Positions 30,579 to 60,365 of a DNA stretch of 64,000 nt are shown here, piece after piece. The notes under the pieces are model-generated. The model was not told the DNA's origin. It was given only the letters and a program-made list of their open reading frames with translations, and ran no database searches. The stretch lies in contig JAZNOM010000048.1 in NCBI GenBank assembly GCA_045580835.1, forward strand, positions 21,908 to 85,907, in the 5' to 3' direction. Origin of the DNA: Eubacteriales bacterium (GTDB taxonomy: Bacteria; Bacillota; Clostridia; Oscillospirales; CAG-272). The position numbers and the translations under genes were made by a program. Each line of letters opens with the position of its first letter. Positions within the stretch are counted from its first letter, which is position 1.

Positions 30579-31121
30579 ATGGCAAAGTATGTATGTTCTG
30601 TATGCGGTTATGTTCACGAGGGTGACAGCGCTCCCGAATTCTGCCCCCAGTGCAAAGTTCCCGCAAGCAAGTTTGTAGAGCAAAAGGAAGAGATGTCTTG
30701 GGCAGCTGAGCACGTTGTAGGCGTTGCACAGGGCGTTAGAGAAGATATTATTGAAGATCTTCGTGCAAATTACATGGGCGAATGCACCGAGGTTGGTATG
30801 TACCTCGCAATGGCTCGCGTAGCTCACAGAGAAGGCTATCCCGAAATCGGTCTTTACTGGGAAAAGGCTGCTTTTGAAGAAGCAGAGCACGCTGCAAAAT
30901 TCGCAGAGCTTCTTGGCGAAGTAGTAACCGACTCCACAAAGAAGAATCTCGAAATGCGTGTTGAGGCTGAAAACGGCGCTACCATGGGCAAGACCGACCT
31001 TGCAAAGCGTGCCAAGGAACTTGGACTTGATGCTATTCACGACATCGTTCATGAAATGGCTCGTGGCGTGGCTCGCCACGGGAAAGCATTCGCAGGTCTT
31101 CTCAAGAGATATTTTAACTAA
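30579..31121 (+). CDS. rbr: reverse rubrerythrin (N-terminal rubredoxin-like domain plus ferritin-like diiron domain)
   Basis: CSVCGY...CPQC at the N-terminus, ExxH diiron motifs (EEAEHA). The ATG at 30579 follows GGAGG. The last ~10 codons lie in or after the island attL core. Confidence 0.92.
31092..31114 (+). repeat. attL core
   Basis: 23/23 identical to 60336..60358. Flanking codons are synonymous variants of the same [13 protein letters not shown] peptide. Confidence 0.88.
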
Positions 31122-31197
31122 TTTTAGATACATATAAATAAAATTAGGAAAGTCTCGGAAGCCGCATAAAATAAGGCTTTTTCAAGGAATAGACACG

Positions 31198-31236
31198 AAA
31201 CACGATTATCTGTTTTTGGATAATCGTGTTTTTTTG
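31198..31236 (+). terminator. intrinsic terminator downstream of rbr (island-supplied)
   Basis: aaacacgattatc / gataatcgtgttt stem followed by a T-run. Confidence 0.85.
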
Positions 31237-31448
31237 TATCTATTTATATTTTTTCGATACGTGGGCAAACCGTGGGGAAAACGAGAATTTTTATAAAGAA
31301 TTAGTCTTTGCCCACGAAAATCCCGCAACCCCTTGTCAGTGCTGGGCTCACGAGCTCTCAAAATTTTCAAATGTGGGCAAATTTTTGCGCTAAAAATTAA
31401 GATTCCTGCTTTCAAATTGCTACAATGAAAAGTAAAGGAGGAAACTAA

Positions 31449-32636
31449 ATGAAAGGTAGCGTAAGAAAAAGAGGAGCAACTTGGTCATACCGTGTTGAAT
31501 TGGGTGTTGTCCAAGGCAGAAGAAATCAAATTGAGAGAGGAGGTTATCAAACTAAAAAGGAAGCCGAAAAAGCTTTAAACGATGTTTTGTATCAATATAA
31601 CAATACGGGTGATTATATTGAGAATAAGAAGATCACTTTTACCGAGGTGTACACAGAGTTTATAGAGAACGAGGCACCGGCAACAAGGGCATATGCAACT
31701 ATTGTCAGATATAAGTCACTGTATAACAATCACTTCAAGGATAGGTTTGGTCCCTATTATATGTATCAAATCACCGCAAATTCGATAAACGACTTCTTGA
31801 ATGAAAAGCGCACCTATTTAAGTGAGGAATTCGTCAAAGGGCTTTACAAATTTCTAAAGGTGCTTTTCGGATACGCACACAAAAGGCAATATACAAAGAA
31901 AGATATTTTTGAAAGTGTCACCGCTCCGCCTGATCCCCGCCATATCGGCGAAATTCGAGCCTACAGCACAGAAGAACTTGCGTCAATGGAAGAACGCTTA
32001 CAAGGAACAAACGTCATCATTTCCTTTTATATCGCTCTCAACACTGGCATGCGTGAAAGTGAAATATTCGGGTTGCAGTGGAGTGATGTTGATTTTGAAG
32101 CAAAGAAAATCAAAATACATAAGCAACTTTTATTTCAAGATAAAAAGTGGTGTTTTTGTCCTCTTAAAACAAAGAATGCCTACAGAAGTGTCAATATTAC
32201 CGATAGCTTCTGCGAATATCTAAAAAGCTTAAAAGAGCAGCAAGCAAAAAACAAAGTATTCTACGAGGACGGATATAAAAGAAACTTTGTAACAGACCGC
32301 CTTGTACGCAACAAGGAAAAATTGCTTGAAATAACCGATTTTATCAATGTAAAACCAAACGGCGAGATGCTTACTACAAATAGCATCAAGTTTATGGCAA
32401 ATGTCATGAAGAACGAGCTTAACATACCGTTTAAATTTCATAATTTGAGGCACACATTTGCAACTGTTCTTGCAGAAAGCGGTATAAGCCCTAAGTATGT
32501 GCAGGAAACACTCGGACACGCAAAACTCGAATTCACTTTGCGCTACTATACACACATCACCGAAAAAATGGGCAGTGCCGCCAAAGAAGCCCTCGAAGGC
32601 TTAGTTAGTTTTAAAAGCAATAAGGAGAACGATTAG
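31449..32636 (+). CDS. int: tyrosine-type site-specific integrase
   Basis: N-terminal arm-binding style MKGSVRKRGATWSYRV. Catalytic region has R (GMRESE), HNLRHTFAT, LGHAKLEFTLRYYTH. RBS AAAGGAGG. Confidence 0.95.
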   Translation: MKGSVRKRGATWSYRVELGVVQGRRNQIERGGYQTKKEAEKALNDVLYQYNNTGDYIENKKITFTEVYTEFIENEAPATRAYATIVRYKSLYNNHFKDRFGPYYMYQITANSINDFLNEKRTYLSEEFVKGLYKFLKVLFGYAHKRQYTKKDIFESVTAPPDPRHIGEIRAYSTEELASMEERLQGTNVIISFYIALNTGMRESEIFGLQWSDVDFEAKKIKIHKQLLFQDKKWCFCPLKTKNAYRSVNITDSFCEYLKSLKEQQAKNKVFYEDGYKRNFVTDRLVRNKEKLLEITDFINVKPNGEMLTTNSIKFMANVMKNELNIPFKFHNLRHTFATVLAESGISPKYVQETLGHAKLEFTLRYYTHITEKMGSAAKEALEGLVSFKSNKEND

Positions 32637-32637
32637 T

Positions 32638-32970
32638 ATGGATGAATTAGTTTATAACCGAGAATGCTTGGAGTTTATACACCAACGAGGTGGCAAGGTG
32701 TTTGAAAAGTTTGATCTTGTCGTAGGCGCTCTCGTGAGAAATGAAAAGCCAATTATTGACGCTTATGTAAAACATATTTCAAATAAAAAATATAGTGATT
32801 TATACGAAATTTGCTTTCAAGTTTCAGGTAAACTGATAAGAATTCTATTTGCAAATGATGATGCAGAAAATGATATTATATTCTTGCATGCCTTCGAGAA
32901 AAACGATAAAAAGGATACCGACAAGGCATTAGAAATAGCATATAAGAGATTGAAAGCATATAAAACGTAA
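32638..32970 (+). CDS. Gp49-like / HigB (RelE-ParE superfamily) toxin-like protein
   Basis: LYEICFQVSGKLIRILFANDDAENDIIFLHAFEKNDKKDTDKALEIAYKRLKAY matches the Gp49/HigB pattern (LxElR...RilY...vlLhgF.KK..k.p..ei..A..r). Starts 2 nt after the int stop. Confidence 0.6.
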   Translation: MDELVYNRECLEFIHQRGGKVFEKFDLVVGALVRNEKPIIDAYVKHISNKKYSDLYEICFQVSGKLIRILFANDDAENDIIFLHAFEKNDKKDTDKALEIAYKRLKAYKT

Positions 32971-32975
32971 AAACA

Positions 32976-33009
32976 GCACAAGCAGGAGTGGTAATACTCC
33001 TGCTTGTGC
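32976..33009 (+). terminator. strong hairpin after the int/toxin-like unit
   Basis: Perfect 14-bp stem gcacaagcaggagt / actcctgcttgtgc. The T-tract is weak. Confidence 0.6.
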
Positions 33010-33129
33010 GTTATATAGGCCACTATACAGGCTTGCGTTTGGTTTGTACATTTTGCAAATTCAAAAGTTGCGAAATAACTTTCAATATGCTATACTTGTG
33101 TTAAGTATTCTATTAAATTGGAGAATGAA

Positions 33130-35856
33130 ATGCCAAATATCAATAACAATTTGATAATTATAAAAGGCGAAGATAAAACTGCGTCTATACGTAATTTTGC
33201 TTTTGAACAACATAAGCCAGTTGTTTGGATTACATACAATAGTGGTAGACAGTATCCGTATAATACAGATGACGTTATTTTTTTAAAGAACCCAAATGTA
33301 ACAGTAATAAAAGATCAAATCGTTTTAATAAATGGTGTTCCTAAGTCAGGTGTAACAATCGTGCAAGAATTTGAAATGTATTGCAGGTTGATTTTTAAGA
33401 ACAATTATACCGAACTTTGCCGTGCAGCAGAAGTAAAAATAGTTGACTCTGCTTTGAGCAAGCCAGATTCAAAAAGCTGTTTCGAATACTTAAAGGAAAT
33501 AGCATATCAAGTTGGATTGTACACACCGGACGGACACAATATTTTGGGTGCAAGATATTCTAAAATAGATTTTATCCGAGAAGACAGTATTTTAGCTTCA
33601 TTTTTGAGCGGTGAACTTAAAGATAATTGCTATGCGAAAGATAAAACTGCAGTGTTTCCGTTTGGCTTCAATGTAAGCCAAAAAATGGCGGTAGACAATG
33701 CGTTGAATTACAAACTTAGTGTTATCGAAGGTCCTCCAGGTACAGGAAAAACACAAACAATTTTGAATATAATTGCGAATGCCATTATGCGTGGCGAAAG
33801 TGTGGCGGTGGTTTCCAGTAATAATTCCGCAACATCAAATGTATTACAAAAACTTCAAAAATACAATGTTGGATTTATTGCAGCACCTCTTGGTAGCAAG
33901 AAGAATAAAGAAGCATTTGTAGAAAATCAGTCGGCAGATTTGCCAGATATGACATCATGGAAACTTGACACGCTTGAATATTTACAAAAGATACAGACAT
34001 TGCATTCAGAAGCAAAAGCGCTTGATGATGCTTTGTTATTAAAAAACGAACTTTCAAAACTTTCACAAGAGAGTGAAACTGTTACGCTGGAGTCGGAACA
34101 TTTTAGTGAGTACTTAAATAATTTTAATCTGATTTTTAAACCTTCATTTTATAAAGCAAAAGCATCCAGTATTCTTTTATTTGTCGCAGAATACGATTTC
34201 AGTATGCAAGATGGCAGAAAGATCAATTTTTTAAAACGCGCAAAATGGCTTTTAAAATACGGAATAGTTAGTTCAAAGTTTCTAAAAGAACCAGCCGAAA
34301 AAGTTATTTCATATTGTTATAGTTTATATTATAAACGACGTTCTGAGGAGATCGCTAGGCGTATTACCAAGATAGAGAAAGAACTTGCTAAGTATGATTT
34401 TCATAAGAAATTGGAAGAATACTCTGAGTTGTCTGCGGTTCTTTTTAGAGCTAAACTTCAAGAAAAATTCGAAGGCGTTCGTTCGCGATATTTGTATAGT
34501 CAAGATGACTTGTGGAAACATTCCGATCAGTTTATTAAAGACTATCCCGTTGTGCTAAGTACTACATATTCACTTAGAGCAAGTTTGTCAAACCAATTTG
34601 TATATGACTATGTTATCATAGATGAGGCATCTCAAGTAGACTTGGCGACAGGAGCACTAGCGTTATCTTGTGCAAAAAAAGCGATCATTGTTGGTGATTT
34701 GAAACAGTTGCCTAATGTTGTCGATAATGCGCAAAAAAATGCTACAGATGAGATATTTTCAAGGCACAGACTTCCCGAAGTGTATCGATATTCAAACCAT
34801 AGCTTGCTTTCTTCGATAACTGAAATGTTTGATGAAGTTCCGCAAGTTTTGCTAAAAGAGCATTATCGCTGTCATCCGGAGATTATTGGCTTTTGTAATC
34901 AACGTTTTTATAATAACGAATTGATCATCTTAACAGAGGCAAGGCAAGATCGGCAACCAATGATGGTTTATAAAACTGTAGCCGGGAACCACGCTAGAGG
35001 GCATATAAATCAGCGACAGATTGATGTAATAATGAATGAGGTTATTCCGCAGCAGAACTTGAATCTGAACGATGGCTCTGTTGGTATTGTTACACCGTAC
35101 CGAGATCAAGCAGATGCTCTGCAAAGTGCATTTGCTGAAACAAGCGTAAAAGCGGATACTGCTGATAAATTTCAAGGGCAAGAACGTAGCGTAATTATAC
35201 TTTCGACCGTTGATAACCAGATTTCAGAATTTGCATCTGATCCTAATCGTTTGAATGTAGCCGTTTCTCGCGCTATTGATCAGTTTATAGTTGTAACTGA
35301 TGGCAATGACAGCGATGGCACTTCAAATATTCACGAACTTATAGGATATATTAGATACAATAATCATGAAGTTATTGATAGCCAAGTATATTCGGTTTTC
35401 GACTATTTGTATAATAGTTATGCCAAAGAGCGTGAAAAGGTTCTCAAAAAATATGGACGTATATCTGATGTAGAGAGTGAAAATCTAATGTATGCGGTCG
35501 TCCGTGATGTACTTGGAGAAGACCGCTTTTCAAAATACGGTGTGGTATCACACATTCCATTGCACATGATTCTTAATGATATGGAAAAACTCACTCCTGA
35601 AGAACTTAAATTCGCGAGTAATCATTTAACACACGTGGATTTTATGATCTTTTCTAAACTTACACATCTGCCGGTGCTTGTAGTTGAAGTAGATGGTTTT
35701 GCTTTTCATAAACGAAACGAGAAGCAACGTCAGCGAGACATAACTAAAGACACTATTTTAGAAAAATATAACATTCCTGTGCTGCGACTGAGTACTGTGG
35801 AAAGTCAAGAAAAAGAACGATTGATAGAAGCGCTTTCAAAAACTATCGATTTATAA
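33130..35856 (+). CDS. SF1 (Upf1/DNA2-like) helicase fused to a C-terminal DUF2726/DUF559-like PD-(D/E)xK nuclease domain
   Basis: Walker A GPPGTGKT, Walker B VIIDEASQ, GDLKQLPNVV, HYRCHPEII, VTPYRDQ, KFQGQERSVIILS. C-terminus has HVDFMIF...VVEVDGFAFH...R. The ATG at 33130 follows GGAGAA. Confidence 0.88.
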   Translation: MPNINNNLIIIKGEDKTASIRNFAFEQHKPVVWITYNSGRQYPYNTDDVIFLKNPNVTVIKDQIVLINGVPKSGVTIVQEFEMYCRLIFKNNYTELCRAAEVKIVDSALSKPDSKSCFEYLKEIAYQVGLYTPDGHNILGARYSKIDFIREDSILASFLSGELKDNCYAKDKTAVFPFGFNVSQKMAVDNALNYKLSVIEGPPGTGKTQTILNIIANAIMRGESVAVVSSNNSATSNVLQKLQKYNVGFIAAPLGSKKNKEAFVENQSADLPDMTSWKLDTLEYLQKIQTLHSEAKALDDALLLKNELSKLSQESETVTLESEHFSEYLNNFNLIFKPSFYKAKASSILLFVAEYDFSMQDGRKINFLKRAKWLLKYGIVSSKFLKEPAEKVISYCYSLYYKRRSEEIARRITKIEKELAKYDFHKKLEEYSELSAVLFRAKLQEKFEGVRSRYLYSQDDLWKHSDQFIKDYPVVLSTTYSLRASLSNQFVYDYVIIDEASQVDLATGALALSCAKKAIIVGDLKQLPNVVDNAQKNATDEIFSRHRLPEVYRYSNHSLLSSITEMFDEVPQVLLKEHYRCHPEIIGFCNQRFYNNELIILTEARQDRQPMMVYKTVAGNHARGHINQRQIDVIMNEVIPQQNLNLNDGSVGIVTPYRDQADALQSAFAETSVKADTADKFQGQERSVIILSTVDNQISEFASDPNRLNVAVSRAIDQFIVVTDGNDSDGTSNIHELIGYIRYNNHEVIDSQVYSVFDYLYNSYAKEREKVLKKYGRISDVESENLMYAVVRDVLGEDRFSKYGVVSHIPLHMILNDMEKLTPEELKFASNHLTHVDFMIFSKLTHLPVLVVEVDGFAFHKRNEKQRQRDITKDTILEKYNIPVLRLSTVESQEKERLIEALSKTIDL

Positions 35857-37005: not shown

Positions 37006-37974
37006 ATGAGAAAAGCCTTAGTTGTAGGAATTGATAATTATTCTTCTTGTCCACTAAATTGTTGTTGTAATGATGCAGATGATATGGCAAGGATTTTATC
37101 TAATAATGGTGATGGTTCAGCTAATTTTGTAGTGAAGTTAGAAAAAGATGTTAGTAAGAAAGCGGATTTAAGGAGATTAATCGAAGAGTGTTTCTCAGGA
37201 AATTCAGATGTTGCGCTATTTTATTTTTCGGGACATGGGCATATAGATGCGGTGGGAGGATATCTTGTAACACCCGATTATAGTAAATATGATTGTGGAG
37301 TATCGTTGCAGGATATATTGACTATTGCAAATAATTCAAAATGTAGAAATAAGATTATCATTTTAGATAGTTGCTATTCAGGATTTATGGGGGATATCAA
37401 TACAAGCGGTCAAAGCACAACTATAATTAATGAAGGTGTAACTATATTAACAGCAAGTCGTTCGACTGAAACATCTATAGAGGTCAATGGGCATGGCTTA
37501 TTTACGTCATTGTTGATAGAAGCTATGGAAGGTGGAGCAGCTGATATTACTGGGCACATAACTCCAGGTGGAATATATGCATACATAGATAAAGCATTAG
37601 GGCCTTGGGAACAAAGACCTGTGTTCAAAACAAATGTTACTAGATTTACATCATTGCGTAATGTAGTTCCAAGAGTAGATATGGCTGTTATCCGAAAAAT
37701 ATGCGACTATTTTAATAGGGAGGATGAAAGATTGCCGCTTAATTCATCTTTTGAACCAACTAATACTCCAAATGCAAAGCATGAAATTTTAGAACCTTAC
37801 GCAGATGAAAATAATGTAAGAATATTTTCGGATTTGCAAAAATTAGAAGGAATAGGATTAGTTGCTCCAGTTGAAGAAGAGCATATGTATTTTGCAGCAA
37901 TGAATTCTAAATCATGTGAATTAACATCGATCGGAAAACAATATTGGCGACTAGTTAGTAAGAATTTAATATAA
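37006..37974 (+). CDS. caspase-like (peptidase C14) protease with an uncharacterised ~120-aa C-terminal domain
   Basis: ALVVGIDNY, catalytic His in LFYFSGHG, catalytic Cys in IILDSCYSG. RBS AAGGAG. Confidence 0.9.
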   Translation: MRKALVVGIDNYSSCPLNCCCNDADDMARILSNNGDGSANFVVKLEKDVSKKADLRRLIEECFSGNSDVALFYFSGHGHIDAVGGYLVTPDYSKYDCGVSLQDILTIANNSKCRNKIIILDSCYSGFMGDINTSGQSTTIINEGVTILTASRSTETSIEVNGHGLFTSLLIEAMEGGAADITGHITPGGIYAYIDKALGPWEQRPVFKTNVTRFTSLRNVVPRVDMAVIRKICDYFNREDERLPLNSSFEPTNTPNAKHEILEPYADENNVRIFSDLQKLEGIGLVAPVEEEHMYFAAMNSKSCELTSIGKQYWRLVSKNLI

Positions 37975-37986
37975 AGGAATTGTGCT

Positions 37987-38376
37987 ATGGCAAAGAAAAG
38001 AAGTTTTATAAGTTTTGATTATGATAATGATAGTGATTTGAAAGCGTTATTAGTAGGACAAGCAAGGAATTCAGACTCCCCATTTTCAATAGCCGATATG
38101 TCAATTAAACATAAAATTGAAAAAGATTGGAAAGATAATGCCAGAAAAAGAATAAAAGGCTGTGATGTTGTTATTGTTATATGCGGAACAAAGACTCATT
38201 TAGCAACAGGCGTAGGCACCGAAATTAAAATAGCACAGGAAGAGGGAATACCATATTTTTTGCTTTGTGGAAGAAGCGATAAGAAATGTACCAAACCTAA
38301 AGAGGCAAAAAATGATGACAAAATGTATAGGTGGACATGGAATAATTTAAAACTACTTATTGGAGGTTCACGATGA
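37987..38376 (+). CDS. TIR-like protein (DUF1863 / ThsB-like)
   Basis: SFISFDYDNDSD ... CDVVIVICG ... GVGTEIKIAQEEGIPYFLL pattern of the MTH538/DUF1863 TIR-like fold. Confidence 0.8.
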   Translation: MAKKRSFISFDYDNDSDLKALLVGQARNSDSPFSIADMSIKHKIEKDWKDNARKRIKGCDVVIVICGTKTHLATGVGTEIKIAQEEGIPYFLLCGRSDKKCTKPKEAKNDDKMYRWTWNNLKLLIGGSR

Positions 38377-38837
38377 AAATTTTTGTTTCGCATAAAAGAG
38401 AAGATGCAATAATTGCAAATGCTATAGCTAATGAATTAAAACGGTTAGGAATTAGCTGCTATCTTGATTTATTGGATGCGGGCATGGTACTTAATGGTAA
38501 AGCCCTTACAGAACATATAAAACGCAATTTGAACAATTGCACTGATATTATAGTTGTAATGTCTGAGAACACTAGATATTCACAATGGGTTCCTTTTGAG
38601 GTTGGTATGTCTGCACAGAAAGATATGCCAACAGCTACATATCTAAAGGAGGATGTGGATTTGCCAAGTTTTTTAAGCTACTGGCCCCGGTTGAAAAAAC
38701 TTTCAGATATTCAGAAGTACGTATCAGCACGCAACGAAGTAAAAAGAGAGTATATACATAAATCCTTATTTGAAAGTGCTTCAGTAACTAGATCACAAAC
38801 TGACAGATTTTATGAGGTTTTGAAACAAAGACTGTAA
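38373..38837 (+). CDS. TIR domain protein
   Basis: KIFVSHKREDA ... LKRLGISCYLD ... IIVVMSENTRYSQWVPFEVG (the W..E segment carries the usual catalytic Glu position). ATGA overlap with the upstream gene. Confidence 0.82.
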   Translation: MKIFVSHKREDAIIANAIANELKRLGISCYLDLLDAGMVLNGKALTEHIKRNLNNCTDIIVVMSENTRYSQWVPFEVGMSAQKDMPTATYLKEDVDLPSFLSYWPRLKKLSDIQKYVSARNEVKREYIHKSLFESASVTRSQTDRFYEVLKQRL

Positions 38838-38852
38838 AGAAAGGAAGACAAA

Positions 38853-39806
38853 GTGGGGTTTAAAGCAAGAGTATATAAAATTTTTATTTCTTCTCCTAGT
38901 GATGTTTTGGAAGAAAGAACTGCAATAAGAAGACAAATAGATAAATGGAATGCGATACATTCAGAAAAAGAAAATATAATTTTGTTACCGGTTAGTTGGG
39001 AAACGCATTCGGTTGCGCAAGCAGAAACACATCCGCAGAATTACATTAATGAAGCTATTTTATCAAATTGTGATTTACTTTTGGGTGTTTTTTGGTGTAG
39101 GGTTGGAACTCCGACACCAAGAGAAAATAGTGGTACAATTGATGAAATAAAGACACATATTCGAAGAAAAAAACCAGCAATGATATTTTTTTCTAATCAA
39201 GAGAAACCCCGTAATTCTGATTTGGCTCAGATAAATGAAATTGAAAAATTCAAAAATGAATTTAGGGACAAGTGTTATTATGTGGAATATAGCAATATAA
39301 TTGAATTCGAAAGTGTTGTGTACAAACAAATAGAGTTGTTTGTGAATTCTGGAAAATTACATGTTTATTATGATTCTGATGTCACTTCTTTGATTGAAAG
39401 TGATTCGAAATTAGCAAAACAAATATCAGAGAGATTTCCTATAGTAGCTAAGAGAGTGTTGAGTAAAATCATAGATGAAAAGCATGATGAATGTGTTTGG
39501 GATGCAATAATAAAAAAATTAGAAAAAAGTCCGGCTGATTTAAGGGATGCGTTGTACTTTATGACAGACAGAGGGGCTTTTTTACATCCTGCTTTTGAGA
39601 AAGGGTATATAACATTAGCAAAATGTTCGGAGGTGGATTATTTTAGTTTGCTGACATATGTTTATACTGTTAATTCATTCACATTTAAACATATGTATAC
39701 CAATAGTCCTCTATCTGACGTGGCATTATCCAATCAAATTAAAGCAATTATAGATAAAGATGAATATATTGAACATAAAATTAGAGAAACATCACTGTTA
39801 GATTGA
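38853..39806 (+). CDS. DUF4062-like (TIR/deoxyribosyltransferase-like fold) protein with an unknown helical C-terminal half
   Basis: YKIFISSPSDVLEERTAIRRQI ... CDLLLGVFWCRVGTPT. GTG start 7 nt after GAAAGGAAG. Confidence 0.65.
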   Translation: MGFKARVYKIFISSPSDVLEERTAIRRQIDKWNAIHSEKENIILLPVSWETHSVAQAETHPQNYINEAILSNCDLLLGVFWCRVGTPTPRENSGTIDEIKTHIRRKKPAMIFFSNQEKPRNSDLAQINEIEKFKNEFRDKCYYVEYSNIIEFESVVYKQIELFVNSGKLHVYYDSDVTSLIESDSKLAKQISERFPIVAKRVLSKIIDEKHDECVWDAIIKKLEKSPADLRDALYFMTDRGAFLHPAFEKGYITLAKCSEVDYFSLLTYVYTVNSFTFKHMYTNSPLSDVALSNQIKAIIDKDEYIEHKIRETSLLD

Positions 39807-39990: not shown

Positions 39991-40115
39991 CGTTGTTTAC
40001 AATGATAATTACGATGTACTGTGGTATAATTTTTATAAAAAGTTGGATTTTTGTCACAAATGACATTTTGGCTCGTTATAATTAGTGTCCGGACAAAATG
40101 GAAAGGAGCGGTGGT

Positions 40116-40616
40116 ATGCCTAATAACGAAGAAGATATCATTGATAGTTTGTACAAGCTATATGAGCAATCAATGTATTATGAGGCTTATAAAATACTGC
40201 ATGACGAATACCTTGCAGAGGATGCGGTACACGAAGCATTTTTGAGATTGATACGAAATAGAGACAAAATTAGCAATCCTTCTTTTCACGAGGTGCGGAA
40301 TTATGCATATAAGACTTTAAAAAGTGCGGCACTTGATATATACCGAAGACAGAAAAAGCAGCGAGAGAATTGCTGCGAAAGCATAGAGACCGCTGAATCT
40401 TTATTTAATGACGATAATGAAAATTCAAATGACATAGTTTTATTGATTTCGGAACTGCCGCCTAAATATGCTACGGTTATGCGATGCTTGTTTATTAGAG
40501 GGCTGAACATACACGAAACTTCAGCGGTACTACAGATCAGTGAAGCATGCATACGCAAAAGATGCGAGCGTGCCAGAAAACTTTTGAAACGCATTAAAGA
40601 AGACAAGGAGGATTAG
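40116..40616 (+). CDS. sigma-70 family (ECF-like) RNA polymerase sigma factor
   Basis: Region 2 (AEDAVHEAFLRLIRN) and region 4 HTH (LNIHETSAVLQISEACIRKRCERARKLLK). The ATG at 40116 is 8 nt after AAGGAG. Confidence 0.82.
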   Translation: MPNNEEDIIDSLYKLYEQSMYYEAYKILHDEYLAEDAVHEAFLRLIRNRDKISNPSFHEVRNYAYKTLKSAALDIYRRQKKQRENCCESIETAESLFNDDNENSNDIVLLISELPPKYATVMRCLFIRGLNIHETSAVLQISEACIRKRCERARKLLKRIKEDKED

Positions 40617-40618
40617 TC

Positions 40619-41908
40619 ATGGAAAACAACCATGTTTTTTCTGAATCTTATGAGAAAAGAAAAAAAGCCGTGCGTGCAGCATTGCAGCAAGAGTGCATAT
40701 CAGCTGAAACGTACAGACAAAGGTGGTCAGTCAGACTGGTTGCCGTGATAGCTATATTGGCAATATTATCAATTAGTATATATGCGGCTGCTCGCTGGAT
40801 TGAGTTTCGAGTGGAACAAAAAGGTAAAGATGTATTTGTGCATGCAGGTATTATGCAGGCGGAAAATAGTGTTTACGAAGAAAAGCCGCTGCGTAGTTGG
40901 AGAGCAGAGAACGGAGAAGTCAGCGTCAAACTTAACATCCCCGGAATGCCTGCAGATATGCTTGAAGACAAAACTGCACCCGGAAAATGGCATGGCAACG
41001 ATGATTCACGCGCGATTACTATTAATGGTATTGACCTTCGCCGTAGTGATTTGAATACAGTTGTTGGAGATGCAAAAGAAACAAAGAGCCTGACAGCAGG
41101 AGAAAATGCCGTCTATGTTATTGAAAAGGGTGAAACTTCTTTTTATAGCCGTATAGCATTTGTAGTATTTGAGGAAGAAGAACTTGTACTGAAAATTTGG
41201 GTGAGTTACGGAATCAATGAGGATGAGTTCTTGAAAATAGTATCTACTATCACCGTTGAGCAAGCGAAGAGCACGGCGCTTGCAATCCCGATTATGAACG
41301 AAATAGTAACCGCAGATAATTATATACCAGAGATTGTTCATACTGAAAAAGCGTCTATATTCGTATCGGATCTGTCGAAAATCGGCGACTCGGTTCGTGA
41401 CATAGAGGATTGGTATACCGTTACTGTTAATACTGTCAGCGTGTATGACAATACGGCAGCACTAAATTCTGAACATATTATTGCAAAAGATAAGCTCGGA
41501 AAGTTTACAGATGATAGCGGCAATTTGATAGCTTACAAACGAACGCCTATAATTTATAACGAAGATGGTACTAAAGGATTTGGAGAATCGGTTTCGGTGA
41601 AGAAGCGATTATATTTCATAACAATTAGCATGGAAGACATTGAGAAAAATCAAGAACTAATATATGCGTGTGTAAACGGATTCAGTTTGCGCGGATATAC
41701 AGAAGAAAATGGTGAAGTTAAGTTTATTTCCGATAATTCGGTAATAGATGCGAAGCCACAAAATCATGCTATGACAACAGAACTTATTTACCGCGAATAT
41801 TTAGGAAACGATAGGTGGAAGATTGCGTATCTGGTGGACGAAGATATTAGCCAAGGAAATCTTGCACTCGTAAGCCAAACAGGAAAAGTTTATATAAAAA
41901 TTCAGTAG
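40619..41908 (+). CDS. membrane-anchored protein, putative anti-sigma factor
   Basis: Starts 2 nt after the sigma gene. Short cytoplasmic N-terminus, one TM (LVAVIAILAILSISIYAA), large extracytoplasmic domain. Confidence 0.55.
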   Translation: MENNHVFSESYEKRKKAVRAALQQECISAETYRQRWSVRLVAVIAILAILSISIYAAARWIEFRVEQKGKDVFVHAGIMQAENSVYEEKPLRSWRAENGEVSVKLNIPGMPADMLEDKTAPGKWHGNDDSRAITINGIDLRRSDLNTVVGDAKETKSLTAGENAVYVIEKGETSFYSRIAFVVFEEEELVLKIWVSYGINEDEFLKIVSTITVEQAKSTALAIPIMNEIVTADNYIPEIVHTEKASIFVSDLSKIGDSVRDIEDWYTVTVNTVSVYDNTAALNSEHIIAKDKLGKFTDDSGNLIAYKRTPIIYNEDGTKGFGESVSVKKRLYFITISMEDIEKNQELIYACVNGFSLRGYTEENGEVKFISDNSVIDAKPQNHAMTTELIYREYLGNDRWKIAYLVDEDISQGNLALVSQTGKVYIKIQ

Positions 41909-48898: not shown

Positions 48899-51559
48899 AT
48901 GAAACAAAAAAAGGTATTATATTTATTTCTGTTGTTAACGCTGTGCGTGGCTTTAGTCTCCTGTAAAGGACAAGCCGAAACCACCGAAAGCATTACAACA
49001 AATGTTAGCGTGACGTCAGCCGAAACAAGTACTTTTGCAGAAAGTACAACCGCAGAAGATTTTGAGATGTTTGAGACTGAATATGTCTGCGATATAACCG
49101 GAGACGGTATTTTAGATACTTGTAAAGTTTCTGTACTTGGCGCTCACGATGAGAAATTCATTGAGGATGTTACAGTATTAGAGGGCGGTGAAAGTCAAAT
49201 CAAAATTGACAGCCCACTATTGTTTGTTAATAATTATGTATTTCGTGCCGAAGACGAAGAAAGGTATAGTATATCATATGGCGGAGAAATACATACCTTT
49301 GAAAAGAGCAGACTTGCAACGCCGCAGGATGAACAATTTAAATTCTTAGAAAGCGGCGATACTGTAGACTATACGGTCATGGACGGAAAACTCGTAGCCT
49401 ATGTTTCAATTGCGTGCAGTCTTTCCGAAATGTGCGGAAAGTGGGAGTTTGTCTATGTATTCAAAGACGGCAAAATGACAATAGACCATGTATATATACA
49501 TAACTATACCACTGGAAAGACCGTAGATTTGGGAGGCACAACACAGAGACTTGAATCTTATAAAAGACGCTACTATTTTAATCAAAATTACAGTGGCTAC
49601 AGTACACTTGAACTGAACGAAGTCAGCGCAGAAGATTTTGCGGCTCTTGATAACAGTTACCATGTATTTACCGAAAGTTATCCTGCTCATCATGGAGGTA
49701 TTCTGTATGATACAGGTGATGAGTATAATTCAAAAATGCTGAAAAACATTAACGAGTACCGCAACATTCTGGAACACTTGCAAGCACATGATGCTGTTAC
49801 TTTGGATGATGTCGAGATAGCAAACGGCAGTGTCTCATACAAGAATATTCAGCTTACCGCGAGGGCTGATACATTAAGTCTGATAATGGAAAGGATCACA
49901 ATGCCGGATGCAGATACTGCGAGAAAATTCCTAAAGGTTGATGCGATGCTTATGCTTTGCGGCATAACAGATCCGATTGCCGAAACCACTTATGACTATG
50001 GAGAAATCATACATACTTTCTATCAGGACTACGGCGATGCAGTCATGACAGAAAGTGCAAAAACTCTTAGATATGTTACCGTGAGATCTAACGAAAATGA
50101 GAGCAAGGTATATATTCAAGGCAAATTGAGTGAAGATAAAAAAGCCGAAGGCTTTTTACACGTAAACAATTATGATATAATTGCAGACCTTAACAGTAAA
50201 AGAGAAAAAGCAGTTACAACGCTGAAGTATGATATCGTTTATTCAGGCGTCGACTATTTTGGGTACAGTATCCCGTGCTATATGATTTATGTTCCAATAG
50301 AAGGAACCGATGATTTTGAATTGTATTTTTACCGTATGCAGATAATGGATATGGATTTTTACGATCTTGAAACGGTGTCATATGCAATAGTAAAGCCGCT
50401 TGAAGATGAGCATTATGCAACCTCGGCAGAGGATTTTTATGCTTCGGATATTACATACAAAGCAGATCTTACGCATGACGGTGTGGAAGATGTATGCGCT
50501 GTTAAGGTTGTCGGACACGGCACCGAGTGCTACGAAGAAGAGCTTATAATAACCGATGGAAAAAGCGGAGAGGTTATAAATGTTTTTTCGCCTGTCACTT
50601 ATGCGAATGAAAATATAGAATTCGAACAGCAGGAAAACGCATATCGTATAAAAACTAACGGTAAAGTATACGAAATGAAAAAAGAAACACTCGACACGCC
50701 GCCTGAAAACCTTTGCGATATTGGTTATGGCAGCATAGTCGACTATACGGTAATTGAAAACAGGCTGTTTTGTCGAATGGGAATTATGTGCGGCATTGTC
50801 GAGGTGTGCGGCGAGATAGTTTATGAGTATTCGTACAAAGATGGCAAGATGACTATTGCCGGCGTTGAGTTGAAAGATTGGCGAACAGGTAGCATAGTCG
50901 ATTTTGGAGCAAGCGAAGCTGGTAGTCTTTTCGATATTCCTGTTTCTGAGTTACAGTCAAGAATGGAAAGATATGAATTTGCAGATCGCTTGCCTGAAGA
51001 GCCGTATACAATAAATGTAACAGGACTTTCTGTACCCGTGACACTATATATGAGCCTTGACTGTGTAACCGCTATCGAGGCTTACGGTCATAGAGTTGCT
51101 CTTGAAAAGCCGAGAGATATTTACGGTAATTGCAATTTTGATTTGTTTGAATACGGCGGAGCTATTATAATTGAGGGCGGATATTACGGTATCGGCGAGG
51201 TGCATATTCTCACTGCAGATGGGACAAGCACCGTACAGCACAAAGACAATGCATCATATTATCTGCATATCAATGACAGCGGCGAGCTTTATTATAAGCT
51301 TTTGCATAATGGTATTGCTGGCATATCGCAGACAGGCGGACTCACGGTAGCAACAAGCTATGATGAGTTCCTTTCTGCCGAGGGATATGCAAGCATCGAT
51401 GGTTGTAATGTTGTATTTAATGAGGCTTACGAAAGTTATGTAATCTCGGACAAATATGACCTTGATAAAGAGTTTGAGTTGAATTACAAGCAGGACTATG
51501 CAAGCATTGAGGAAAAATTTGCAGAAAATGTGGAGAGATATAACTATAAGGAGAAATGA
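48899..51559 (+). CDS. large lipoprotein with an internal ~150-aa domain duplication
   Basis: Lipobox VALVSC. The ATG at 48899 follows GGGAGA. Residues around DITGDGILDTCKVSV...KDGKMTIDHVYIHNYTTGKTVDLG recur as DLTHDGVEDVCAVKV...KDGKMTIAGVELKDWRTGSIVDFG. Confidence 0.75.
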   Translation: MKQKKVLYLFLLLTLCVALVSCKGQAETTESITTNVSVTSAETSTFAESTTAEDFEMFETEYVCDITGDGILDTCKVSVLGAHDEKFIEDVTVLEGGESQIKIDSPLLFVNNYVFRAEDEERYSISYGGEIHTFEKSRLATPQDEQFKFLESGDTVDYTVMDGKLVAYVSIACSLSEMCGKWEFVYVFKDGKMTIDHVYIHNYTTGKTVDLGGTTQRLESYKRRYYFNQNYSGYSTLELNEVSAEDFAALDNSYHVFTESYPAHHGGILYDTGDEYNSKMLKNINEYRNILEHLQAHDAVTLDDVEIANGSVSYKNIQLTARADTLSLIMERITMPDADTARKFLKVDAMLMLCGITDPIAETTYDYGEIIHTFYQDYGDAVMTESAKTLRYVTVRSNENESKVYIQGKLSEDKKAEGFLHVNNYDIIADLNSKREKAVTTLKYDIVYSGVDYFGYSIPCYMIYVPIEGTDDFELYFYRMQIMDMDFYDLETVSYAIVKPLEDEHYATSAEDFYASDITYKADLTHDGVEDVCAVKVVGHGTECYEEELIITDGKSGEVINVFSPVTYANENIEFEQQENAYRIKTNGKVYEMKKETLDTPPENLCDIGYGSIVDYTVIENRLFCRMGIMCGIVEVCGEIVYEYSYKDGKMTIAGVELKDWRTGSIVDFGASEAGSLFDIPVSELQSRMERYEFADRLPEEPYTINVTGLSVPVTLYMSLDCVTAIEAYGHRVALEKPRDIYGNCNFDLFEYGGAIIIEGGYYGIGEVHILTADGTSTVQHKDNASYYLHINDSGELYYKLLHNGIAGISQTGGLTVATSYDEFLSAEGYASIDGCNVVFNEAYESYVISDKYDLDKEFELNYKQDYASIEEKFAENVERYNYKEK

Positions 51560-54935: not shown

Positions 54936-54968
54936 TTTATTATAAAGTTATGGAAGTAGGTGTATTGC

Positions 54969-55571
54969 ATGAGATTATTAGTAATTCGTCACGGCGAGTC
55001 CGAAGCCGATTTATTAGATGTACACGAGGGACGAGCGGACTTTCAATTAACAGAAAGAGGACATAGGCAAGCCGAAGCTATGGCAAAATATGTCCGTGAT
55101 ACCTATAAAGTATCTGCTATTTATTGTAGTACTCTCAAGCGTGCATACCAAACTGCTGAACATTTATCTTATGAGTGTAGCATACCGCTTACACCCGATA
55201 AGAAACTCATGGAATTTAACAATGGACTTCTTGCCGGATTGGAAAGAAAAGTTGTGGAGGAGAAGTATCCTGAAGTGCGGGAGCTTCCTATACATGCTGC
55301 CGTTTATGAACAAGAATCTGTACTCGAATTTAGATATAGGGCTGAATATATACTTTCTAAAATAATTTCAGAAAATAACTCTGATGCGACCGTTGCTATC
55401 GTAACACACGGCGGCATGGTTAATCAGTTATACAGGTCATTTCTGAAGTTGTCAGTAGATTGCAATGTATTTTTTAATACAGGTGATACCGGCATACACG
55501 AATGGGTTTGTGCGAAAGATTATCGTTGTGTTGTTAAATCAAATTATACTGCACATACAGAAGGAATATAA
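54969..55571 (+). CDS. histidine phosphatase (phosphoglycerate mutase) family protein
   Basis: LLVIRHGESEAD (RHG catalytic motif), TERGHRQA, VTHGG. Confidence 0.85.
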   Translation: MRLLVIRHGESEADLLDVHEGRADFQLTERGHRQAEAMAKYVRDTYKVSAIYCSTLKRAYQTAEHLSYECSIPLTPDKKLMEFNNGLLAGLERKVVEEKYPEVRELPIHAAVYEQESVLEFRYRAEYILSKIISENNSDATVAIVTHGGMVNQLYRSFLKLSVDCNVFFNTGDTGIHEWVCAKDYRCVVKSNYTAHTEGI

Positions 55572-56149: not shown

Positions 56150-56192
56150 AAAGGTGATATTATTAAATACAAAAAGTTCAAGGAGAGGATTA

Positions 56193-57146
56193 ATGAGTTC
56201 GTTATTTATAGTTGGAAACGGATTTGATATTGCGCACGGTATTCAAACAAAGTATAGCGACTTTAGAACTTTTATTATAAATATGTTCCCACGAGCATTT
56301 GAGTTGCGAGACGAAATTGTATACCTGGAGGACTTCAAAAACATCGATTTAGCGGAATTTGCAGCGGAGATTTTGTTAAATGCAATGGATAAAGCTGCCG
56401 GTGAAGATTGGTTTAATTTTGAAGAAGCACTTGCTTATGTAAATTTTGACAACAAATTTCCATTACCTAATCACAGAGAAGATGAAACAGATGAATAAGA
56501 TCAGATGTTAATGACACGTTATCTATTATATATGGATATATTAACCGATTGCTATATTAAGTGTTCAAAGACATGGCAAGATTTTTTCAGGTTATGGATC
56601 AAAAGCATTCAAGCAAAAATTAACAATGGCAACTTCTCTGCAAAGGAATCATTAAAAGAACTTTTTAACGCTCCAGATATGCAATTTTTCAGTTTCAACT
56701 ACACCAAAACTTTACAAAAACTTTATGGAGTAAAAAAGGTGATTCATATACATAACCGCGTTGGACAAAAATTAATTTTTGGGCATGAAAAACGTGCTAC
56801 CGAAAGTCTTTATCAAAATATAAATTTTGACAAAGGAACATGTATTGGCTCTACTTTTTTAGATGACATGATTCTTTCTTTAAAAAAAGATACGGATTCC
56901 CCATTGAAAAAATATAATGATTTTTTCAGAAAACTAGATGGAAATATTGACAAAGTATATTCTTATGGATTTAGTTATGGAAAAGTTGACAGCATTTACA
57001 TTAAAAAGATATTAGATGGAATTTCGCCTAACGCTGTTTGGTATTTCACAACTTTTGAATCCAAAAATACTGAAGCGTTTAGAATTAAAAAAATCAAATT
57101 ACGAAATTATGGGTTTAAAGGTCAATTTGGTATTTATACAGGATAA
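56193..57146 (+). pseudogene. abiH: AbiH family abortive-infection protein interrupted by one in-frame TAA
   Basis: LFIVGNGFDIAHGIQTKYSDF is the AbiH N-terminal signature. ORFs 56154..56498 and 56505..57146 share a frame, separated only by the TAA at 56496..56498. Combined length is 318 codons. Confidence 0.78.
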
Positions 57147-57282: not shown

Positions 57283-57487
57283 GCAGGTTAAGATTTCACT
57301 ATATCAAGGGGGTACTATACCTTTTTGAGGATTGTGGAACGGATTGACACCAAACAATTTATAGGATAACAAAACATTTATTAGAGCCAGAACACACATT
57401 AGTATCTTTGGGTACCCATGTGTGTTTTTCTTTTTCTGCTATGTCTCGTCTAAACGGTACTGACAAATTATAGCGGAGGTGATGCCT

Positions 57488-57811
57488 ATGAATATAGACC
57501 TCAAGTCACAAGCCAATAACTGCGATAACAAGGAATATATTGACAACTTTTCTTACAAAGAAGCGGAAAAAGAATGGAAATCACTTTTTGATAGCGTACT
57601 AATCGATATTATAATAGACGAATATGAAAATACAGAACTAGTAAAAGCAATACTAGCACTTACTAGAAATGAACGTATCGTAATTATTCTGAATTTTGTA
57701 GAAGGAATGACACCTAAAGAAATCAGCGACATAATGGATATAAGAACAAATAATGCGTATGTACATAAAAACCAAGCATTAAAGAAACTTAGAGCAAAAT
57801 TGACACAGTAG
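57488..57811 (+). CDS. small sigma-70 region-4-like HTH protein (mobile-element regulator type)
   Basis: LTRNERIVIILNFVEGMTPKEISDIMDIRTNNAYVHKNQALKKLR. The ATG at 57488 is 8 nt after GGAGG. Confidence 0.75.
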   Translation: MNIDLKSQANNCDNKEYIDNFSYKEAEKEWKSLFDSVLIDIIIDEYENTELVKAILALTRNERIVIILNFVEGMTPKEISDIMDIRTNNAYVHKNQALKKLRAKLTQ

Positions 57812-57823
57812 GGAGGCGATATA

Positions 57824-58051
57824 TTGAAAAAAGAGAATAATACTTCTCAAGAATTACTGTACACAATCAGCGAAGCAGCAGCAATTCTGAAGATAAACAA
57901 AAACTTTGTTTATACCCTAATAGGGCGAGGATATCTTAAATCTATCAAACTCGGTTGCCGTAAAGTCACACGAAAATCTTTGCTTGAATTCTTGGATAAA
58001 TATGACGGCTTAAATTTCGATGAAATATTAGCTTGCGAAACAGATGACTAA
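57824..58051 (+). CDS. xis: excisionase-family / MerR-like HTH DNA-binding protein
   Basis: LYTISEAAAILKINKNFVYTLIGRGYLKSIKLG.RKVTRKSLLEFL. TTG start 7 nt after GGGAGG. Confidence 0.75.
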   Translation: MKKENNTSQELLYTISEAAAILKINKNFVYTLIGRGYLKSIKLGCRKVTRKSLLEFLDKYDGLNFDEILACETDD

Positions 58052-58322: not shown

Positions 58323-58655
58323 TTATTTATTTTGCCTTTTCTGCTCAATATTTTTTTCTACTGAATCATCAAGTAATTTACGCAGTGATTCGCAAATTTT
58401 GGAAAAATATTTTGCTATCGGTTCCACTAAAATTCCACTTAAATACTCGGCTGCCGGAACGTACTGTGAAGCAAAATGTGCAGCAAAAGCAAGCGCTCCA
58501 TAACCAATTGCTAAATAACCGATTTTCAAAAGGCCTGCCCAAAGTAATTCCTTTTTAAAACCGTTTTTCCAAGAACCATAAGTCGTTCCTATAATTTGGT
58601 TGACACCCATTAAAACGAGCAAAACTATTATCAATATAATACTCACGAAGATCAC
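58323..58655 (-). CDS. small membrane protein (3 TM), function unknown
   Basis: 110 aa, hydrophobic N-terminal two-thirds, charged tail. Last gene of the minus-strand cluster. Confidence 0.55.
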   Translation of the reverse strand: MIFVSIILIIVLLVLMGVNQIIGTTYGSWKNGFKKELLWAGLLKIGYLAIGYGALAFAAHFASQYVPAAEYLSGILVEPIAKYFSKICESLRKLLDDSVEKNIEQKRQNK

Positions 58656-58676
58656 CTTACCTTTAGATTCTTAAGA

Positions 58677-58886
58677 TTATATAGCCGCTCCGCGAGATTT
58701 TATATAAATATCAATGTCGTTATTTATATAGTTATGACCTGTGGTATGAAGAATATCGTAAAACTCGTTAATATAATCATATACGCCATATTCTCTAAAC
58801 AATTTAGCAACATCTTTTCCACTTATTTTACGATAGTTTTTATAACTTTCCAAACAAAATATTGTAAATGCTAATTTTTTACTCAT
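58677..58886 (-). CDS. DUF3791 family protein
   Basis: FTIFCLESYKNYRKISGKDVAKLFREYGVYDYINEFYDILHTTG matches the DUF3791 pattern as I remember it. Confidence 0.7.
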   Translation of the reverse strand: MSKKLAFTIFCLESYKNYRKISGKDVAKLFREYGVYDYINEFYDILHTTGHNYINNDIDIYIKSRGAAI

Positions 58887-58897
58887 ATAATGACTCC

Positions 58898-59134
58898 TTA
58901 TACATCAGGGAACACAATGGTTCCTGTTGTTTTCTCTTGTAGCAACAGCGAATAAAGCATATCGGTACTGTACTGCCATACTTTAGTTTCTTCATCTTCA
59001 AGTTCCTCATATAGTTTTGAAGAATAAAGCATTTGAATCGCATCTTCATTTGATAAATTTTGTTTATTTACAATCATAGCAACTAAGTCTGCACTAATAT
59101 AAGGCATCATTGCTAAAAATTGATCCTGTCCCAT
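58898..59134 (-). CDS. DUF3791-like protein (second paralogue)
   Basis: LYSSKLYEELEDEETKVWQYSTDMLYSLL. Adjacent to the other DUF3791 gene and to the DUF3990 gene. Confidence 0.6.
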   Translation of the reverse strand: MGQDQFLAMMPYISADLVAMIVNKQNLSNEDAIQMLYSSKLYEELEDEETKVWQYSTDMLYSLLLQEKTTGTIVFPDV

Positions 59135-59144
59135 ATTTTTCTCC

Positions 59145-59630
59145 TTATTTAATTTCTTTAGCTTCTAAAAACTTTAGATAAGAAAGAGCTTTGTTTGTAT
59201 GCAGAGTCCATTGATCATGCAATACTTCTGTCTTAAGCTTTTTTACAGTATATTCAGCATCATAAGCACCTGTTTCAAAAAGGCGAATAGATTGATATAT
59301 ATTATCATCAGCCACGGGGCCGATATACAAATCATGTATTACTGTGCTTTCAGCTCCTTTGCGATTGCTTACTACAAAATCTAACCAATTTTCATCGGCT
59401 GTTTTAAATTCTTCAAAGCTAAGCTCGCCTCTTGCTTTCTCAAAGTCAAATTCATAAACTGATACATATCCAATTTTAATATTATTTCTGCGCATTTTTA
59501 TTCTTGCCCAACGCTCAGCTTGTTCGTATGAAGTAGTAGTATAAAAGCCAACACCAAAGTCTAAATATACATCGCCCTTTCGTATCTCCGGTTTATCAAC
59601 AAGATCAGTGCTGCCATGATATAAAATCAT
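59145..59630 (-). CDS. DUF3990 family protein
   Basis: MILYHGS...DFGVGFYTTTSYEQAERWA is the typical DUF3990 N-terminus. Overlaps the upstream gene by 4 nt. Confidence 0.75.
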   Translation of the reverse strand: MILYHGSTDLVDKPEIRKGDVYLDFGVGFYTTTSYEQAERWARIKMRRNNIKIGYVSVYEFDFEKARGELSFEEFKTADENWLDFVVSNRKGAESTVIHDLYIGPVADDNIYQSIRLFETGAYDAEYTVKKLKTEVLHDQWTLHTNKALSYLKFLEAKEIK

Positions 59631-59923
59631 CCTAATCCCTCCATAATTCTCGTTATAGCCTTTTGCTCGCGTTTTAGAGCACTTAACATTTCTTCATAGT
59701 GTTTTCTTTGCATTAATTGGTCCTTTACTTGGGAAATCACATCGGGATCTTTACCAATGTAATCATCACAAACTTTGCCGTCTTTTCGATACTTTAAATA
59801 GTAGTATTCGTTTTTACGGCAAATCAAGGCGCCTTTAGGAAGTTCAGATAGCAGTTTTTCGTATTCTTCGATCATTTGTTGATTGCGTATGGCTTCGTTT
59901 TTTACAACTGTATTAATTAACAT
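59627..59923 (-). CDS. hypothetical protein (first gene of the DUF3990 cluster)
   Basis: 98 aa, coiled-coil-rich, translationally coupled to the DUF3990 gene. Confidence 0.55.
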   Translation of the reverse strand: MLINTVVKNEAIRNQQMIEEYEKLLSELPKGALICRKNEYYYLKYRKDGKVCDDYIGKDPDVISQVKDQLMQRKHYEEMLSALKREQKAITRIMEGLG

Positions 59924-59938
59924 ATCATCACCGTATAT

Positions 59939-59967
59939 ATTTTATCACACCAAATTGTGTTTTGCAA
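59939..59967 (-). promoter_or_regulatory. sigma-A promoter of the DUF3990 cluster with an overlapping 8-bp inverted repeat
   Basis: Minus strand TTGCAA, 17 nt, TAAAAT. The inverted repeat TATCACAC ... GTGTGATA (59943..59982) brackets the -35. Confidence 0.6.
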
Positions 59968-60305
59968 GATATTTGTGTGATATGGTTATATGTTGAAAAT
60001 CATTATTATACGTTGCGATATTTACACATTTAGTATGTAATTTAGAAAACGAATGCGAAGTGTTCAAAAAAGCAGAAAAAGAATATGTTAAGTATGTAGG
60101 GCGAGTATAACTTTAAAAACATTTATACTCATTGACATCCATACAAAAATCCTGTATAATCTATTCGAAAGCAGGCATCGAAAATGGCGCAAAAGTGCAA
60201 ATGTGGGAAGCAATTTTACGTGGGAAAAGAGTGGGAAGTGCTCTTTTTCAAGGTGTAAAAAAGCCAGTAAACACAGGCACAATCAGCATTCCCCAAACAG
60301 ACTAT

Positions 60306-60365
60306 CGTGACGAAGCTCGTCATGGAAAAGCATTTGCAGGTCTTCTCAAGAGATATTTCGGTTAA
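60306..60365 (+). pseudogene. displaced 3' remnant of the rubrerythrin gene (contains the attR core 60336..60358)
   Basis: Encodes ...[19 protein letters not shown], parallel to the rbr end ...[18 protein letters not shown]. The upstream part of track ORF 60132..60365 is not rubrerythrin-like. Confidence 0.85.

Follow-up and report, generated by a model that had tools for sequence, protein, structure and literature searches.

The elements e14 and phage 21 reportedly insert into the 3' end of the icd gene of E. coli, where each brings along a diverged version of the gene end. Integrative and conjugative elements (ICEs) as well as integrative and mobilizable elements (IMEs) of Firmicutes also target housekeeping genes at their 3' ends, for example fda in the case of ICESt3 and rpsI or rpmG in the case of IMEs, and defence islands are carried by integrase-bearing genomic islands at fixed hotspots of the tRNA/tmRNA type, whether P4-like or like the phage-inducible chromosomal islands (PICI-like). 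We have analyzed a 64,000-nucleotide stretch of DNA from a rumen member of the Clostridia, Eubacteriales bacterium (hereafter the window; contig JAZNOM010000048.1 of assembly GCA_045580835.1), in which a 29,244-bp block interrupts the end of the rubrerythrin gene (rbr). The evidence given below makes it very probable that this block is an island integrated site-specifically into the rbr 3' end, to which it brings a replacement coding end. The mechanism, replacement of a gene 3' end by a tyrosine-integrase island, is already known; what is new is the target gene, the size of the integrase family, and the damaged replacement end.

As with e14 and phage 21 in icd, target-derived direct repeats lie at both junctions with an integrase beside one end, the last part of the working gene is element DNA, and the host's own end persists as a fragment at the far junction. 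The island differs from these elements in its target (rubrerythrin), its hosts (gut and rumen Clostridia), the predicted replacement of ~19 codons, the lack of detectable phage genes and, in this genome, the apparent loss of a catalytic ligand from the replaced end. An integrase with arm-binding and catalytic domains, specificity for a gene 3' end and variable cargo are features in common with the Firmicutes ICEs and IMEs, and the RepA_N, ParAB and polyvalent-protein modules that are typical of such ICEs are found with integrases 61-78% identical to that of the island. Nevertheless, no match to a relaxase, coupling protein or type IV secretion system is seen when the 28 main ORFs (open reading frames of at least 69 aa) of the island are searched with Pfam, and subsets of them with PHROGs, PADLOC and NCBIfam, and the island therefore falls outside the definition of an ICE. 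Like the defence islands at known hotspots, it joins a constant integration module and attachment (att) arms to rapidly exchanged anti-phage cargo; here, however, the hotspot is a protein-coding oxidative-stress gene, and no satellite-type packaging or replication genes are found in these scans.

The island is bracketed by the 23-mer GCAGGTCTTCTCAAGAGATATTT, of which the window contains exactly two copies, as the initial annotation had stated (31092-31114 and 60336-60358, each on the plus strand), and for which no chance copies are expected in the window with 2 mismatches allowed. The 23-mer forms the centre of a wider in-register duplication of 66 nt (31061-31126 against 60305-60370, 83% identity), and the start-to-start spacing of the duplicated rbr 3' ends is 29,244 bp. 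GC content along the window, which had been suggested as a check, falls to 0.361 between the repeat copies, compared with 0.419 in the left flank and 0.384 in the right flank. No tRNA gene is involved at the insertion site. The target gene, the att sites and arms, and the backbone genes of the island are as follows.

30579-31121, plus strand: hybrid rubrerythrin gene of 180 codons (Pfam RUBY_RBDX and Rubrerythrin), ending ...GLLKRYFN* (the asterisk marks the stop)
31061-31126, plus strand: attL, the putatively island-borne ~19 last rbr codons and 5 nt past the stop, containing the 23-bp repeat
31127-31448, plus strand: left (P') arm, with a terminator, arm-type repeats and a promoter-like site for the integrase gene (int)
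31197-31232, in the left arm: strong terminator with a 16-bp stem, serving the hybrid rbr
31261, 31272, 31308 (inverted) and 31373, in the left arm: four GTGGGVAA arm-type repeats
31397-31426, in the left arm: promoter-like site for int
31449-32636, plus strand: tyrosine integrase of 395 aa (Pfam PF14657, PF14659 and PF00589; phrog_1 integrase)
32638-32970, plus strand: small Gp49/HigB-like protein (PF05973), beginning 2 nt after int
57479-57811, plus strand: sigma-70 region-4-only protein (Pfam), in a backbone regulatory/excision module that spans 57479-58051
57824-58051, plus strand: HTH_17 excisionase-like protein (Pfam), in the same module
58323-59923, minus strand: cluster of small DUF3791 and DUF3990 genes (Pfam), just inside the right end
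60035-60304, plus strand: right (P) arm, conserved in related elements that differ in cargo upstream of 60035
~60203-60238, in the right arm: arm-type repeats GTGGGAAG/GTGGGAAA
60305-60370, plus strand: attR, the displaced host rbr 3' end, with a 20-codon remnant at 60306-60365
60381-60406: native rbr terminator, downstream of the attR remnant

An empty site was sought in public sequencing runs, stored as contigs, from ruminant gut metagenomes, which include strains that differ from the window by ~2.3% in the left flank. In each of three runs (X1, X2 and X3), a single contig of 4405, 3856 and 7444 nt, respectively, covers 30917-31114, then 60306-60479, then 61191-62000. Past 31114 the loose end of these contigs reads CGGTTAATTTTAAACC..., which is the window from 60359 onward; that of X3 is CGGTTAATTTTAAACCATACATAAGAGGGT, again matching 60359 onward. 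Moreover, the X2 and X3 contigs have zero listed differences from the right repeat copy across 60306-60418. The empty site of these relatives holds one repeat copy, in register, and the ending ...KRYFG* that had been predicted for an unoccupied rbr is present in that register in all three single contigs.

The tyrosine integrase that the initial annotation had placed near the left end is confirmed by its domains and catalytic residues. Its gene starts 327 nt past the rbr stop, and the protein has an arm-binding domain (Arm-DNA-bind_4), a SAM-like core-binding domain (SAM_3) and a catalytic domain (Phage_integrase; PF00589, 89.6 bits), with the catalytic residues R, K, HxxR, H and Y all present in the translation (GMRESE, LKTKNAYR, HNLRH, LGHA and RYYTH). 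These residues, and an N-terminal arm-binding domain paired with predicted arm-type repeats in the att arms, are those of a tyrosine recombinase. The predicted arm-type repeats cluster in both arms, and their spacing is kept in the related locus L115. The left arm is kept in L130 and L153-L158, and conservation of related right arms is limited to 60035-60305, the cargo upstream of 60035 being different. Directly behind int, the Gp49/HigB-like gene is found in every examined relative of 81-99% integrase identity (L153-L163), and no antitoxin-like gene adjoins it in any of them; it looks like a part of the integration module rather than cargo. As for the Xis-like helix-turn-helix protein that had been proposed near the right end, an HTH_17 protein is indeed encoded at 57824-58051, but its score against the TIGR01764 'excise' model (27.9 bits) is below the cutoff of 28.8. 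Homologues of this gene and of the sigma-70 region-4 gene also adjoin a decayed int in L130.

The right arm also contains a perfect promoter consensus (TTGACA-17-TATAAT, 12/12) at 60132-60160, facing outward. With the island integrated, this promoter is directed into the displaced tail of rbr and its native terminator; were the island an excised circle, it would read through attP in the direction of int.

Support for rbr as the target of this integrase is provided by its relatives. Scanning species-representative genomes with Rbr gave 80 loci, one of which, in the isolate Agathobaculum desmolans ATCC 43058, has an integrase nearby (61% identical to that of the island, ~355 nt after rbr). Scanning metagenome contigs with the integrase gave 67 loci, and 41 of these have a complete N-terminus, at least 55% identity and at least 450 nt of upstream sequence. 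All 41 informative loci, with integrases 55-94% identical to that of the island, have rbr or an rbr 3' fragment upstream of int, and in the tabulated loci int starts 295-373 nt after the rbr stop. The same arrangement is seen in relatives with 99% and 81% identical integrases; the 94% relative has another element upstream. One related integrase sequence is indexed in 594 blocks of an assembly collection and, in the three places shown, lies downstream of a FUR-family gene and rbr. The rbr endings are specific to clades, being N* in the island and L130, NK* at 26 loci, A* at 5 loci and in A. desmolans, and G* at 9 loci. The N* endings of L041, L005 and L074 were considered as signs of the island and rejected, these being natural variants without island arms. 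Hence the proposal of an integrative island in the rbr 3' end that carries its own coding end is supported by the repeats, the empty site and this linkage, and rbr serves a large integrase family as a general target rather than being peculiar to this island.

Other tyrosine integrases are also found directly against rbr 3' fragments, in tandem with elements of the island family. Those of 403-409 aa lie on the minus strand in L114, L120 and L122 (L114:1226-2437(-), L120:1280-2491(-), L122:1149-2378(-)), and those of 445 aa in L158 and L159 (L158:8163-9500(+)). The L114 and L158 integrases, which are the two that were compared, are ~30% identical to the island integrase. Given these two further integrase lineages, the rbr end is a shared multi-family hotspot with tandem occupancy. 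Full-text literature searches returned no paper linking rubrerythrin to an attachment site. The choice of rubrerythrin as a target, which the initial annotation had called notable, therefore stands out in that no such att site was found in the literature, but not as a peculiarity of this element, the site being shared by a large integrase family. In gut and rumen Clostridia it is a very common integration site for which no description was found, and so a predictable one to search for ICEs, for defence islands and for what remains of either.

Rbr in the window is of the reverse type, with an N-terminal rubredoxin-like domain and a ferritin-like domain, and its gene would be host DNA up to ~31050-31065 and island DNA from there to the stop. 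The initial annotation described the left repeat copy as the end of an intact rbr ORF. This is correct as regards length, which the island-borne copy restores to 180 codons, but not as regards two invariant residues, which are altered by the D163G and E164V substitutions (31066 and 31069-70). A third private substitution is T156I (31045), and the final residue, N180, is of the island type. Five nucleotide changes are private to the window (31045 C>T; 31066 A>G; 31069 A>T; 31070 A>G; 31082 A>G) and fall within 38 nt across the junction, against a divergence of ~0.5% over the 1.6 kb that follow. The reading ...HDT(V/I)HEMA(R/K)DEARHGK... is common to all 80 genome loci and to all attL loci, so that GV stands in the window Rbr where more than 120 relatives and the sister island copies have DE; the sister copies encode this canonical ending with the codons GAC GAA, and the window has GGCGTG. 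V164 aligns with the glutamate of EKTH, the second ExxH motif in PDB 9fj2, and the corresponding motif in the window is V-A-R-H. The glutamate of the second ExxH motif is a diiron ligand in rubrerythrins, and the window Rbr does not retain both of the ExxH motifs that mark this family.

There is an appreciable chance, although we would not bet on it, that the change from DE to GV is an assembly or sequencing error and that the island restores a normal Rbr differing only by G180N. The GV allele is confined to this assembly, is absent from every other data set that was examined, including the sister copies with their GAC GAA codons, and would be part of a cluster of five private changes in 38 nt that is odd for real mutation; the exact window Rbr protein is not on record, and a k-mer search of public runs with 3 sampled words, which is a weak test, found no GV allele. 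These facts weigh against our account of a damaged replacement end. On the other hand, the rest of the window is sound, with intact ORFs and ~99.5% identity to L157 over 31083-32700, and a chimeric assembly cannot create GGCGTG because no relative has it. If GV is real, the window Rbr is probably inactive, as judged from the loss of the aligned ligand residue, and the mismatch between the attL exchange region TCGTGGCGTGGC and its attR counterpart TCGTGACGAAGC could impair excision. The five substitutions at 31045, 31066, 31069, 31070 and 31082 may then be a real footprint, destroying the diiron site and locking the defence island in the chromosome. Acquisition of a defence island would in that case have coincided with loss of an oxidative-stress enzyme, with a possible fitness cost. 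A still broader proposal, which we regard as speculative and on balance unlikely in its entirety, is that mobile elements of gut and rumen Clostridia have in the rbr 3' end a major landing pad, so far undescribed, used by at least three integrase lineages (~30% mutual identity) in either orientation and in tandem arrays in a role like that of tRNA and tmRNA genes, and that the substitutions in the GV region are a real footprint locking the island in.

The relatives of the integrase bear on what kind of element this is. Integrases 61-78% identical to that of the island directly precede genes for RepA_N/DUF6017, ParA, ParB, LPD28 and a 2838-aa polyvalent protein, which is an ICE-like layout, and one relative at 81% keeps DUF6017 after int and Gp49. 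The island might thus be a decayed ICE, in other words a once-conjugative, rbr-targeting element that retains int, att sites and cargo but has shed the modules for replication, partition and transfer, and signs of decay and mosaicism within it (a split AbiH gene and internal 186-nt repeats) are in line with such a history. We find this doubtful, however, since zero remnants of conjugation genes are detected in 29 kb and the closest relatives (94-99% integrase identity) are likewise without conjugation genes, perhaps implying that the int-Gp49 lineage was never conjugative. Relatives of 81-99% integrase identity otherwise share only int and Gp49 with the island. From its predicted gene content we therefore place the island in an ICE-related family, as a cargo-rich member with an integrase only; as a mobilizable element it is putative.

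Two sets of loci are reduced forms of the island. L130:2030-3047 is the closest integrase relative in the metagenome scan, in which int, 94% identical over its first 156 residues, has a deletion of ~100 nt and is split among several short ORFs; the homologues of the sigma-70 region-4 and HTH_17 genes come directly after these fragments, and L130 represents the backbone of this type of element in a minimal, decayed form. In L153-L156 (L153, ~9000-15100), a sister species has a truncated island, in which rbr, int and Gp49 are followed by 493 codons from the start of the helicase gene, 97.5% identical up to window position 34610, after which come unrelated genes and the AP-endonuclease-2 gene of the flank. 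This copy is without attR and is therefore stranded.

According to the initial annotation the crossover lies in the 23-bp core, and the remnant at the right end is island-borne. Neither proposal agrees with L153-L157, the contig of run X26 or the alleles at the empty sites. L153-L157 have a 99% identical integrase in another species, the left flank of which is 81% identical to the window. Through rbr to 31049 they show 10-14 differences from the window per 100 nt; past 31049 differences occur only at 31066, 31069, 31070 and 31082, followed by ~0.5% through int. The same switch from host to island sequence is present in the X26 contig, and a contig from run X25, which starts at 31046, is near-identical to the island copy from there on. 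The attL stretch hence travels with the island in another host species. In addition, the conspecific empty-site contigs match the right and not the left copy at 31061, 31066, 31069, 31076, 31079 and 31082. The onset of homology between the left and right copies is at 31061/60305, and in the homologous right arm of L115 the arm-type repeats stand at a similar distance from the onset of rbr homology, at GACGA. From the sharing of the left copy across hosts and the match of the empty sites to the right copy, we consider it likely that island DNA begins at 31050-31065, ~30-40 nt upstream of the 23-bp core, with the exact exchange point being predicted from these comparisons. As read from these alignments, the island would supply ~19 of the last rbr codons and not one, and the right-hand remnant would be the host's original gene end and not island DNA; the 20-codon orphan remnant noted earlier is thus present at 60306-60365, but as host sequence.

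Crossover inside the 23-bp core would mean that 31061-31091 is host DNA, that the island gives only the last codon (N*), and that it brought in the 30 nt preceding the right core. Usually the core is placed at the longest exact identity, and the attL of L130 is unlike that of the window up to the core and identical to it from CTTCTCAAG onward. We nevertheless think such a crossover quite unlikely, because 31050-31091 is common to island copies in two hosts whose rbr genes otherwise differ by 10-14%, and at each polymorphic site upstream of the core the allele of the conspecific empty sites is that of the right copy. Several observations do weigh against an exchange point at 31050-31065. L130 rbr upstream of the core is 71% identical to the left copy of the window, which fits either a core crossover there or a different island-borne end, with the exchange point or the end varying in the family. 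In addition, the right arm and rbr share only TCGTG at the predicted junction, which is short for the overlap of a tyrosine recombinase. Finally, excision is unobserved, contigs from public runs breaking at the repeat and so hiding both attP and attB formed de novo. Efforts to map the crossover by column diversity at 26 attL loci of the NK* clade were dropped because rbr is too conserved in those hosts. The rbr fragments in L114, L120 and L122 were also considered as attP forms and rejected, as they are tandem junctions with the second, minus-strand integrase family.

With island DNA beginning at 31050-31065, the following mechanism can be proposed. The rbr-specific integrase (31449-32636) would recombine the attP of the island with a chromosomal attB in the rbr 3' end, where attP would consist of the element's own copy of the ~19 last rbr codons between two arms with GTGGGVAA arm-type sites. 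Strand exchange would take place at the upstream edge of this copy, at 31050-31065 around TCGTG/GACGA, with Int bound at arm and core sites carrying out the recombination. As an outcome, the working rbr would end in island DNA (...KRYFN* and the island terminator), and the host's own last 20 codons and terminator would have been moved 29 kb away, to 60306-60406. Excision would need Int and presumably the HTH_17 protein, and horizontal movement would need a helper element in trans because the island is without transfer genes. While the cargo, mostly anti-phage defence, turns over, the int-Gp49 module and the arms would persist; in this model the island retains int, Gp49, the sigma-70 region-4/excisionase-like pair and the att arms, and the rest is exchangeable cargo. 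The model also calls for caution in annotation, as an apparently intact target gene may end in island DNA and be inactive, and a 'pseudogene' 29 kb away may be the original host sequence.

The cargo assigned by our scans is listed below.

33118-57146: variable cargo region (Pfam, PADLOC and PHROGs)
33118-35856: superfamily 1 (SF1) helicase with a DUF2726 nuclease domain
37006-39806: caspase, two TIR proteins and a DUF4062 protein
40098-41908 and 42473-43701: two pairs of extracytoplasmic function (ECF) sigma factor and DUF4367 anti-sigma-like protein
43768-45696: M28 peptidase
45975-48890: protein of 971 aa resembling penicillin-binding proteins (PBP-like)
48812-51559: protein of unknown function, 915 aa
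51977-53728, minus strand: UG31 defence reverse transcriptase
54960-55571: histidine phosphatase
56154-56498 and 56505-57146: split AbiH

These assignments bear out the initial description of a cargo of defence and envelope functions with neither phage nor conjugation genes. A prophage or phage-satellite remnant is highly improbable, for although phrog_1 is matched by the integrase and relatives of the Gp49-like and HTH_17 proteins occur in phages, the island ORFs tested match no capsid, terminase, portal, tail, packaging (including packaging-hijack), primase or lysis family in Pfam or PHROGs, and the integrases in IMG/VR are at most 25-30% identical, with no close relative among them. The two AbiH halves (114 and 213 aa) correspond to the N-terminal and C-terminal portions of its Pfam model, and the split gene is probably a pseudogene. 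Two pairs of internal direct repeats, 41766-41951/45693-45878 (186 nt, 88%) and 39974-40007/45891-45924 (34 nt, 94%), both bracket the segment with the sigma, anti-sigma and M28 peptidase genes, and GC content climbs to 0.41-0.45 within 46-49 kb. The cargo is itself a mosaic.

Outside the island the flanks carry genes of housekeeping types (nucleotidyl transferase, NAD-dependent epimerase/dehydratase, flavin reductase, RibD_C and a protein with the AP-endonuclease-2 fold), in agreement with the earlier view that core-type genes resume there. The right flank also contains a segment of 711 bp (60480-61190) that is missing from the empty-site strains of X1, X2 and X3, the contigs of which skip from 60479 to 61191. 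No obvious flanking repeat is seen around this segment. It carries a lipoprotein-like gene of 175 aa (60524/60554-61051; weak DUF3221 match), for which an exact-protein look-up gave no record, and it constitutes a second strain-specific indel, ~115 nt past the displaced rbr end.

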